Shown here: positions 18,140 to 19,261 of the stretch, one piece after another
How positions within the stretch are numbered: the first letter of the stretch is position 1
Layout of the letters: every line of letters starts with the position of its first letter
Assembly: GCF_003334385.1 (NCBI RefSeq)
Contig: NZ_QOWN01000040.1
Strand: one strand, 5' to 3'
DNA: 38,787 bases
Source: Escherichia coli
GTDB lineage: Bacteria; Pseudomonadota; Gammaproteobacteria; Enterobacterales; Enterobacteriaceae
Made by a program: the position numbers and the translations under genes
The notes under the pieces: generated by a model
Told to the model about the DNA's origin: nothing
Seen by the model: only the letters and a program-made list of their open reading frames with translations
Database searches by the model: none

Positions 18140-18519
18140 TGAAAATTCACCGCATATCCCCGGAGACGCTTATAACACTCATCCACGCACACCTGGCCGG
18201 AAAAGCTGACAGTACCGCCAAAGAAGAGCACCGGCTACTCCGTCGTTTCCTGCGGGATGATGACGGCAGGCTGGCCGGCGTACTGCTGAATATTGCCGGA
18301 ATACTTCAGTTCAACAGGGAATTAAGTGCGCGGCATAATTATCCGGCCACACCCCTGACTGAATTTTCATTAAGGAAACGGGGAAAACAACTTCATCTCT
18401 GTCTCTGCAGTCTCCGTTTCTTTTATATTCCTCCGGTATTTATACAAAACAAAAGAAGAAAATCTATTGTTGTACACCTTAATAAGATCACTTATAAACA
18501 AACCCATTCAATACGCTGA
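18136..18519 (+). CDS. hypothetical protein whose 3' end runs into an AT-rich insertion
   Basis: ATGA-coupled to the previous ORF. From about 18360 the composition turns AT-rich and the C-terminus reads as low-complexity (LCLCSLRFFYIPPVFIQNKRRK). This suggests a replaced or fused 3' end. Confidence 0.45.
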   Translation: MMKIHRISPETLITLIHAHLAGKADSTAKEEHRLLRRFLRDDDGRLAGVLLNIAGILQFNRELSARHNYPATPLTEFSLRKRGKQLHLCLCSLRFFYIPPVFIQNKRRKSIVVHLNKITYKQTHSIR

Positions 18520-19037
18520 CGAAGTGATTCATACTGATTATACTCATCTTTGCCTATATGTTTTTTAAGCGTATTAACAATATCATATTGAGGATGTCCT
18601 GAATTGTCAGTATACAGTGTTGTTGCAGGAAGGACTGCATAATCTGATATTTCACAACCTGTATACAGTTCTTTGTCAGTTCGGCAGGAATGGCAAAGAG
18701 AAAGACATGTATACAGGTCTGTGTTTTCTGCCTCCTCAGGAGATAACCACGACACATATTGCAAATCATCTGTATCAGGATAACAATTTTCTTCCTGAAC
18801 CTGAACTCTGAAAATATAGAAAAATAATTCATCTTTTGAAAGGCATGCTATTTTATTCCCCCAATACACCGCATTATCAAGTTGATCCGATAAATAAATC
18901 CATCCTGGTGTCGTCTCTAACGACCAGCATATAACAGAAGGAGCATCAGTTCTTATTTTCCCATCTTTTATTATTTGCAGACCTCTGCTCATTGTTGTCG
19001 CATGAAAAAGATTTAATATTTTATTTTCAGCCTTCAC
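18492..19037 (-). CDS. orphan 181-aa protein with a PARP/Tpt1-like (H-Y-E) ADP-ribosyltransferase-fold signature
   Basis: The only minus-strand gene inside the tra operon, and it is AT-rich. LFHATT...GLQIIKDGKIR, then GWIYLSDQLDNAVYWG 36 aa later, then CEISDYAVL. These parallel the PARP motifs LFHGS / GIYFADMVSKSANY / YNEYIVY as recalled. Confidence 0.4.
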   Translation of the reverse strand: MKAENKILNLFHATTMSRGLQIIKDGKIRTDAPSVICWSLETTPGWIYLSDQLDNAVYWGNKIACLSKDELFFYIFRVQVQEENCYPDTDDLQYVSWLSPEEAENTDLYTCLSLCHSCRTDKELYTGCEISDYAVLPATTLYTDNSGHPQYDIVNTLKKHIGKDEYNQYESLRQRIEWVCL

Positions 19038-19261
19038 TCTATTTCCTCATTTCCCAAGAAACATATTAAAAACGGAAAACATTACACATAACCTGGAGGA
19101 CAAATCATGACTTTAAATTTCCCTGCCGGGGAAACTACACTATTCTCAGCAAAAAACATCCTGACAGCAATACTCACTCAGCACAACTTACACGCATAGC
19201 GTTCCCATTTGAATACAGTTGCAGCCCGCGATTTATTTTGTCTTCCGGAGCCACCTCTGCC

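Follow-up and report, generated by a model that had tools for sequence, protein, structure and literature searches.

Predicted ADP-ribosyltransferase fold of a protein encoded antisense to the transfer operon of an IncK2/Z-type plasmid

We analyzed a 38,787-nucleotide stretch of Escherichia coli DNA (assembly GCF_003334385.1, contig NZ_QOWN01000040.1), referred to as the window below, which represents the transfer region of an I-complex plasmid (MPF_I, MOBP) of the IncK2/Z type. Just ahead of its traU gene lies orf181, a minus-strand gene whose product is predicted to adopt an ADP-ribosyltransferase (ART) fold. Judging from sequence comparisons and a structural model, we consider it somewhat probable that orf181 is a small cytoplasmic ART of an undescribed mobile-element family, that it binds nicotinamide adenine dinucleotide (NAD+), that it resembles Arr and PARP, and that it represents the antisense member of a long-resident module with a role in genetic conflict. 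In every annotated record examined, orf181 and its neighbors orf119 and orf126 are labeled 'hypothetical' (in near-identical RefSeq plasmids, orf181 is the hypothetical protein WP_001390888); orf181 now gains a confident fold, candidate catalytic residues and a family of about 160 clusters. IncK2/Z and related I-complex plasmids spread extended-spectrum β-lactamase and AmpC genes in E. coli, in people and livestock, and ADP-ribosylation has recently become central in phage-bacterium conflict, with DarT and CmdT as examples.

Fold, NAD pocket and family of orf181

An AlphaFold2 model of orf181, calculated on a 121-sequence family alignment, reached a predicted local distance difference test score (pLDDT) of 95.1 and a predicted template modeling score (pTM) of 0.90. 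The larger alignment was needed, as a six-sequence alignment of the plasmid clade gave an unusable model (pLDDT 57). The model contains the split β-sheet of the ART superfamily, with ART strand 1 beginning at residue 7. Structural matches include the bacterial toxins TreX (an Rhs toxin; score 8.6), heat-labile enterotoxin A (8.4), PltA (7.9), pertussis toxin S1 (7.7) and Scabin (6.8), and further DarT1 in complex with NAD+ (7.9, 134 residues aligned), KptA/Tpt1 (7.7), the Caulobacter hypothetical protein CC0527 (7.2), Arr (7.0, with 20% identity the highest in the list) and PARP15 (6.7). Low scores were obtained for RES toxins (4.5-4.9) and for IcmQ (4.8, rank 56th). Four Pfam families of the ADP-ribosyl clan are matched among the 121 family members: PARP by nine members, and DUF3990, ART-PolyVal and Tox-ART-HYD1 by three each, the latter three families weakly and always below their gathering scores. 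Two members, P0096 and P0089, exceed the PARP gathering score of 26.7 (29.3 and 29.4 bits, respectively), with residues 2-73 covering positions 51-123 of the 199-position PARP profile. An initial annotation of the window had proposed a PARP- or Tpt1-like mini-protein, and the assignment to the ART fold is borne out by the model, its structural matches and these two Pfam hits.

The N-terminal half of orf181 is, by its sequence, a classical His-Tyr nicotinamide/NAD pocket of the PARP/diphtheria-toxin/Arr type. Here, strand 1 (H12-x-T14) is followed by a helix, strand 2 (Y48), a second helix (A56..Y/W59-G60) and strand 3. The strand-1 histidine and the strand-2 tyrosine are both in place and align with their counterparts in PARP, diphtheria toxin and Arr. 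His-12 is kept in 123 of 130 sequences and Tyr-48 in 129 of 130; together with the PARP profile match over the His-Tyr half, this near-invariance supports the PARP-like histidine and first tyrosine that had been suggested initially. The isoelectric point (pI) of 4.7, a grand average of hydropathy of -0.42 and the lack of a recognised signal or domain for export, as judged without a signal-peptide prediction, would place the protein in the cytoplasm.

The initial annotation regarded the protein as an orphan, which is no longer tenable: an exhaustive hidden Markov model search with a plasmid-clade profile recovered 160 representative clusters at E<=1e-3 and 61 at E<=1e-10, where a word-indexed search found just 10 clusters. 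Nearly all members are stand-alone proteins of 160-200 amino acids, mostly 165-195. We derived conservation figures from the 121-sequence family alignment and a 130-sequence count. At least 90% conserved in the 121-sequence alignment are H12, T14, I22, Y48, A56, D88 (invariant), D90 and W178; an acidic residue, E or D, occupies position 91 in 93% of sequences, and S117 and R119 are conserved in 65-73%. The conserved residues found in orf181 itself are H12-A-T14, T42-T43, G45, Y48, A56, D88, D90, D91, S117, R119 and W178. The family consensus can be written in pieces (M.LYHGT...RG..I...G.I; TT.GYVYLT.....A.YYGN; YIF..I....L.PD.DE; SL....S.R...D; and a C-terminal W), and there is no conserved stretch of 7-10 columns. 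No database copy is identical to the window protein (best 98.9%), which differs from P0001, the best database cluster (98%), by D31N, Y58H and F76I. We rejected a spurious open reading frame (ORF) in AT-rich DNA as an explanation for orf181, based on this conservation and on the confidence of the model.

The PHROGs family phrog_13493, which has no assigned function, is matched by the window protein (E=1.6e-4, residues 8-100) and by 64 of the 121 members (best 2.2e-12). By these matches, phrog_13493 is the same phage family as the orf181 family or one overlapping with it. PADLOC, NCBIfam and Pfam hold no model that covers the orf181 family, and a tblastn search of a phage collection with the window protein returned no match. 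A NUDIX match of the window protein (E=0.22) was dismissed as noise.

Third catalytic residue and relation to known ARTs

The residues of the canonical ART triad are drawn from strands 1, 2 and 5 (PMC7955679). All of the residues quoted for an H-Y-E core in the initial annotation (H12, Y48, Y58 and E129) are present in orf181, and the second half of this core did not withstand the family comparison. Position 129 is E in 26, Y in 24 and D in 21 of 130 sequences (E/D about 36%), and the glutamate is shifted in P0008, even within the plasmid clade. At position 58, the tyrosine of the window corresponds to the family-wide consensus, and histidine is found in all five other aligned plasmid-clade sequences. 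The match to the PARP profile ends near residue 73, so PARP gives no template for the third residue. Glu-129 is thus probably not the third catalytic residue, as far as conservation can tell.

An invariant acidic motif, PDxD[DE] (D88, D90, D91), is located in the loop after strand 3. In an hhalign comparison of the family with Arr-2/Arr-ms, H12 pairs with H19, Y48 with Y49 and D90/D91 with D83/D84, and the AxxWG helix and an IF.V strand are paired as well. In Arr, H19, Y49 and D84 were found to be critical by mutagenesis, and D84 is called catalytic (PMC6092378). On conservation, we prefer one of D88, D90 and D91 as the third catalytic residue, which would most probably complete an Arr-like H-Y-D arrangement. 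The canonical strand 1/2/5 rule would instead point to position 123 as the strand-5 residue; it is E in the window and D in 59% of the family, and maps to the N-terminal edge of a predicted strand (124-126).

The variable third position bears on the question whether orf181 is an enzyme at all. It could have no catalytic role and instead, as an ART-like protein that binds NAD or is structural, regulate or accompany the plasmid's type IVB secretion system (T4BSS) in the way of IcmQ; or it could be a decaying relic without current function. Such a reading would account for the non-conserved canonical glutamate, and the gene has indeed been lost repeatedly and occurs in truncated variants (P0004, P0005, P0009, P0010). 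We nevertheless regard it as quite unlikely: strict conservation of H, Y and PDxD[DE] across 121 very divergent proteins argues for catalysis, the ORFs are intact after divergence to 41% identity, most members reside in phages that have no type IV secretion system (T4SS), and IcmQ stands far down among the structural matches. No sequence similarity between orf181 and IcmQ from the Legionella Dot/Icm T4BSS was detected, and orf181 does not qualify as a member of that family. The ART-like domain of IcmQ was reportedly placed by Farelli et al. in 2013 at the C terminus, behind a helical IcmR-binding domain. In addition, orf181 is not a core T4BSS part, because it is absent from most I-complex plasmids.

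We compared orf181 to other ARTs. As a candidate minimal ART of the H-Y-[D/E] type, it is, by sequence, closest to Arr in its motif layout and to PARP and diphtheria toxin in its N-terminal half. Arr (Arr-ms, Arr-2; PDB 2hw2, 9iaf, 9iba) likewise is a minimal stand-alone ART (143-151 amino acids, compared with 181 in orf181), with an HGT-type motif on strand 1, a tyrosine on the next core strand and an AxxWG motif in a helix. A DD motif in the loop after its third strand, which contains the catalytic aspartate of Arr, aligns, if weakly, with D90/D91. In contrast to Arr, orf181 has about 30 extra helical residues between the acidic motif and the SxR strand and an additional helical tail at the C terminus, which ends in the conserved W178. 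Its family is found in phages and plasmid tra operons, whereas Arr occurs in integron cassettes, and the Pfam Arr model is not among the 25 families listed for the 121 members.

This likeness raises the possibility that orf181 is a resistance gene, whose product would ADP-ribosylate and so inactivate a small molecule (an antibiotic or toxin) as Arr does. HxT, hYh[ST], AxxWG and DD are common to both proteins (an SxRT motif may be shared when judged by eye, and is not part of the hhalign alignment), orf181 like Arr is solitary and of similar size and needs no antitoxin, and arr genes are plasmid-borne in Proteobacteria (PMC8492726). We find this explanation hard to credit. Besides the missing Arr match among the listed Pfam families, the main carriers of the family are prophages and phage-like elements, which is unexpected for a resistance enzyme, and neither the placement of orf181 within tra nor its strong AT bias is what one sees in resistance cassettes.

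In its NAD-binding N-terminal half (His...Tyr...Tyr), orf181 is homologous to the H-Y-E ARTs of the PARP/diphtheria-toxin type (PF00644). hhalign places H12 and Y48 on PARP1 H862 and diphtheria toxin H21/Y54, covering only the His or His-Tyr region at very low probability. orf181 falls outside PF00644 itself, since the window protein has no match at E<=1 and the match of the two members ends before the strand with the catalytic glutamate; orf181 also has no regulatory or accessory domains, in which it differs from PARPs. DarT shares with orf181 its small size, a presumed cytoplasmic location and an HxT-type start, at 13% identity, but DUF4433/DarT is absent from the 25 listed Pfam families and no macrodomain gene is adjacent at the plasmid loci examined, so that orf181 cannot be assigned to DarTG. 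The link to Tpt1/KptA drawn in the initial annotation holds for the HGT-type start only: a profile search of PDB sequences returned the Tpt1 motif ('LFHGT...ILKDG.I', PDB 7kw8, E=0.24), next to chance matches to complement C3 and cytochrome c, and nothing beyond this motif aligns. Indeed, orf181 has no N-terminal RNA-binding lobe and no identifiable Arg-His-Arg-Arg tetrad, the likeness is confined to the NAD lobe, and NCBIfam matches to Tpt1/KptA are weak and limited to 5 of the 121 members (E>=0.002). The Arg-Glu-Ser motif and the adjacent Xre/COG5642 antitoxin that characterize RES-domain toxins (ParT, MbcT, NatT) were not found together in orf181 and its surroundings. Taken together, we assign the orf181 proteins to a known superfamily, as a family not described so far whose genomic setting is unusual and conserved. 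There is no new chemistry or fold, and nothing so far departs from known ART biology.

Gene map and history of the orf119-orf126-orf181 module

The coordinates of orf181 and the features around it are given in Table 1. Between 17700 and 19700, the window shares 99.8% identity with E. coli plasmids, pDETEC33 among them. As described initially, an AT-rich block is present (GC 0.32-0.43 in 200-bp windows over 18300-19299, compared with 0.51-0.65 in both flanks), and it contains a minus-strand gene that is the only coding sequence on this strand in the annotated 14 kb of the tra operon from DotI/IcmL to traY. The 28-nt overlap of this gene with the upstream plus-strand ORF (18492-18519) could also be verified. 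In other lineages, this 3' overlap between orf126 and orf181 amounts to 19 nt (Salmonella) and 6 nt (metagenomic). The location of the block in the traT-traU interval is correct; a single interrupting cassette it is not, as orf119 and orf126, which co-occur with orf181 and have an intermediate GC content (0.44-0.52 at third codon positions in the window), separate it from traT. The product of traU presumably is a T4BSS ATPase of the DotO/IcmB type.

Table 1. Features of the window around orf181
Feature	Position	Strand	Description
traT	16907..17725	+	left backbone neighbor of the module
orf119	17780..18139	+	acidic protein, pI 4.9, no assigned function
orf126	18139..18519	+	basic protein, pI 10.8, no assigned function; convergent with orf181, 3' ends overlapping
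AT-rich block (limits of the initial annotation)	18360..19240		first 160 bp belong to orf126 (its native, AT-rich 3' end) and lie outside the variable segment
orf181	18492..19037	-	181 amino acids, ART fold; GTG start, GAGGA ahead of the start; pI 4.7
Variable segment	18521..19244		724 bp; from alignment and BLAST of the window against L002 and L003
Divergent intergenic region	19038..19261		224 bp, between the orf181 start and the traU ATG
traU	19262..22306	+	right backbone neighbor; annotated ATG at 19262; annotated 'conjugal transfer protein' / 'ATP-binding protein'

Related plasmids exist in three states. In the first, the order is traT-orf119-orf126-(orf181, antisense)-traU, as in the window; in the second, represented by the IncK2/Z plasmids L002 and L003, orf181 is missing (traT-orf119-orf126-traU); in the third, represented by L004 (IncI-gamma/K1), traT is followed directly by traU. 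The whole interval is present in 74 of the 448 plasmid records that match 17700-19700 and absent in the other 374. The variable segment itself occurs in 78 of 5426 complete E. coli genomes (about 1.4%), always plasmid-borne and in single copy. There are thus natural plasmid pairs with and without orf181, for example pDETEC33 and pJNE170426-2.

L002 and L003 are 96-98% identical to the window up to position 18520, and the alignment resumes at 19245-19258. In the L002-type IncK2/Z plasmids, the variable segment is swapped for an unrelated 157 bp, for which we found neither similarity to the window nor a source in related loci. Flanking direct or inverted repeats that would mark an insertion are not present at the variable segment. 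The initial annotation had taken the 3' end of the upstream ORF to be altered. Because L002 and L003 match the window up to 18520 and encode the same AT-rich orf126 C terminus, this 3' end is native and not altered by an insertion; between the window and L002 the C terminus shows 93% identity, and its conservation can still be recognised in distant lineages. Of orf119, L004 retains a piece of the 5' part and 36 bp of the 3' part; these remnants are joined to the 120 bp that precede traU in plasmids of the L002 type, which makes L004 a deletion derivative. On this sequence evidence, the E. coli relatives without orf181 arose by deletion or replacement. Since deletion has removed the module from related E. 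coli plasmids, conjugation does not require it.

Homologues of orf181 are encoded by other MPF_I plasmids (P0003, P0006 and P0008, with 71%, 55% and 41% amino acid identity), in each case again antisense to the tra genes. The module lies ahead of traU, and three of the four lineages have traT flanking it on the other side. In L006 (Salmonella) and L010 (metagenomic), the orf181 homologue is found directly upstream of traU, while in L005 a PLD-like gene and a TraT-like gene intervene. Identities to the window proteins in L006 are 75% for TraU, 73% for TraQ, 58% for TraT, 55% for orf181, 49% for orf119 and 44% for orf126, and the same ranking is seen in L010 (62%, 61%, 52%, 41%, 40% and 33%, respectively), as expected if module and backbone have co-diverged. 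L005 has the most distant backbone (TraU 54%, TraQ 43%, with a TraT-like gene of 235 amino acids) and yet the closer orf181 (71%) and orf119 (64%), and it lacks orf126; judging by these identities, its module has evidently been exchanged. The proposal of an acquisition as cargo is therefore not supported: in two of the three distant lineages, orf181 keeps its place in the gene order and has diverged in parallel with the backbone, and orf181-less E. coli plasmids keep remnants of the module.

The GC content at third codon positions (GC3) is 0.25-0.37 for orf181 in all four lineages, 0.42-0.52 for orf119/orf126 and 0.66-0.74 for TraT/TraU. By these comparisons, the low-GC module of orf119, orf126 and orf181 has been a long-term resident whose composition has not ameliorated. 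This suggests selection for AT-richness, in the form of silencing or low expression.

An hhalign comparison of orf119 and orf126 gave a probability of 82% (E 1e-5 over 89 columns), and their conserved motifs include PAFNGGWLL and DFFIRRQQFI; by sequence they are probable tandem paralogues. Searches of Pfam, PHROGs, PADLOC and the PDB with both proteins returned no match and no relative with a known function.

Some further observations concern this interval. The divergent region 19038-19261 must contain the orf181 promoter and the traU ribosome-binding site; the gap between the two genes is 224 bp in the window and 56 bp in L006, and the genes overlap in L010. Inside this region, a 30-codon plus-strand ORF, MTLNFPAGETTLFSAKNILTAILTQHNLHA, is located at 19108-19200 behind a strong GGAGG Shine-Dalgarno sequence. 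We rejected this 30-residue ORF as a partner of orf181, as conservation does not extend to the Salmonella or the metagenomic lineage. An Rfam search gave no match. Within orf181, the 10-bp palindrome CTGTATACAG is present in two copies 48 bp apart (18657-18718), which jointly form a 21-nt imperfect inverted repeat. The spacing of the copies is not that of a LexA box, and the repeat may simply mirror repeated Leu-Tyr-Thr codons.

Genomic contexts and proposed role

Outside the I-complex plasmids, family members were found in diverse mobile elements. In two independent Firmicute-type prophages (L022, L023/L024), the member is located at the tail-lysis junction, a classical moron site. A member lies within a long array of small genes on a 205-kb linear phage-like 'plasmid' of Bacillus licheniformis, another is a solitary gene on a Pantoea MPF_F plasmid, a third resides on an element with RdgC, topoisomerase III and a PAPS-reductase-like gene, and a relative is encoded by Bacillus phage G. 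The closest non-plasmid homologue, P0013, is found on a 5.7-Mb chromosome (L012; CP075175.1, 4938-6513), 32 bp downstream of a 343-residue CAP12/PCTIR TIR-domain gene, in an island that also holds AbiJ and a Lit-like U49 peptidase. The two genes may represent a TIR + ART defence pair, of which this one instance was seen. The remaining loci are short contigs with unrelated neighbors. At the plasmid locus itself, we could confirm that no macrodomain or antitoxin gene is recognisable beside orf181 in Pfam, PADLOC or the annotated neighbors. Partnerless contexts of this kind typify accessory genes through which mobile elements engage in conflict; toxin-antitoxin pairs and core secretion components do not look like this.

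In the mechanism that we somewhat favor, orf181 would bind NAD+ and transfer ADP-ribose to a specific macromolecular or small-molecule target. This transfer would serve conflict among mobile elements, either by protecting the plasmid-bearing cell against phages or competing elements, or by modifying a host factor. Defence is somewhat favored by the prophage moron sites and the defence island, counter-defence or host takeover by the phage-array contexts. Since a traU transcript that starts upstream must cross orf181 in antisense orientation, tra transcription and orf181 expression would be mutually antagonistic. A solitary ART without antitoxin that is kept at prophage moron sites and antisense in plasmid tra operons makes a reasonable candidate when new activities in defence or counter-defence are sought.

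Several findings weigh against this view. The structural matches include ART-fold proteins that merely bind NAD (IcmQ) or are inactive (PARP13, RCD1), the alignment with Arr is weak (hhalign E 0.006, probability 6%), and the plasmid clade carries an alanine after the histidine in place of the usual glycine (HAT vs HGT). With the window protein as query, scans of the Pfam, NCBIfam and PADLOC models gave no match. No recurrent partner gene was seen beside distant family members at the loci examined, and the contexts thus contain no pointer to function. A promoter and terminator scan gave nothing above shuffled background, so that no promoter for orf181 was found, and the idea of reciprocal expression is drawn solely from the gene geometry.

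An unlikely but tangible alternative is that orf181 acts as the toxin of a toxin-antitoxin or abortive-infection module, a growth-arresting ART in the manner of DarT, CmdT or ParT, which is neutralised by orf119 and/or orf126. orf119 accompanies orf181 in every plasmid lineage that carries it (4/4), and plasmids that have lost orf181 still possess orf119, intact or in fragments; the only partial states seen keep orf119/orf126 and lose orf181, which corresponds to the direction allowed for the loss of a toxin. The position of one distant homologue directly after a TIR protein in a defence island and the very low GC3, which fits low or silenced expression, would also suit a toxin. Family members outside these plasmids are solitary, however, with no conserved neighbor. 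The presumed partners lie on the opposite strand in the tra operon and are not co-transcribed with orf181, which does not conform to a type II toxin-antitoxin organization, and they match no antitoxin, macrodomain or immunity family and no PADLOC system.

Alternatively, orf181 could be an effector that is sent through the I-type (Dot/Icm-like) channel and ADP-ribosylates a defence or host factor of the recipient, with the acidic orf119 and the basic orf126 as adaptors. Four lineages carry the gene within a T4BSS operon, which also encodes a giant LPD7-domain protein. ART domains occur in 'polyvalent' proteins of conjugative elements, in line with the three ART-PolyVal matches in the family, and relatives are found in phage early-gene-like arrays and in Bacillus phage G. 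We consider an effector very unlikely: being antisense to tra, orf181 would be repressed and not induced while the channel genes are transcribed, and a PDB search found nothing similar to orf119 or orf126. It also lies outside the leading region, in which plasmid anti-defence genes cluster (PMC11541004). Similarly improbable is a dedicated T4BSS effector module, in which orf119/orf126 would hand orf181 to the channel for injection into recipients or neighbors, disarming defences or intoxicating non-kin, while convergent transcription against tra gates its synthesis. If true, orf181 would be the first case described from an enterobacterial conjugative plasmid of an effector enzyme that comes with adaptors of its own.

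Other cargo was noted in and around the traT-traU interval of the related plasmids. The gap between traT and traU is a known integration site of ISEcp1-blaCMY-2 in IncK2 plasmids (PMC5350095). In L003 (p1517k_K, NZ_MW800640, 1-1460), blaCMY-2-blc-sugE is located in this gap directly upstream of a 5'-truncated orf119, with the ISEcp1 end outside the stretch, an arrangement that corresponds to the IncK2 signature insertion of PMC5350095. In L005 (GCA_024497895.1, contig JANHKB010000017, 2726-7806), a PLDc_2 (Nuc-like) nuclease gene adjoins the orf181 homologue, and a Phd/PIN toxin-antitoxin pair is inserted between traU and traW. Finally, genes for recombination-promoting nucleases of the Rpn family (Transposase_31 / HTH_Rpn_C) are found just downstream of traX in L007 (1259-2342), L010 (841-1908) and L011 (606-1445).

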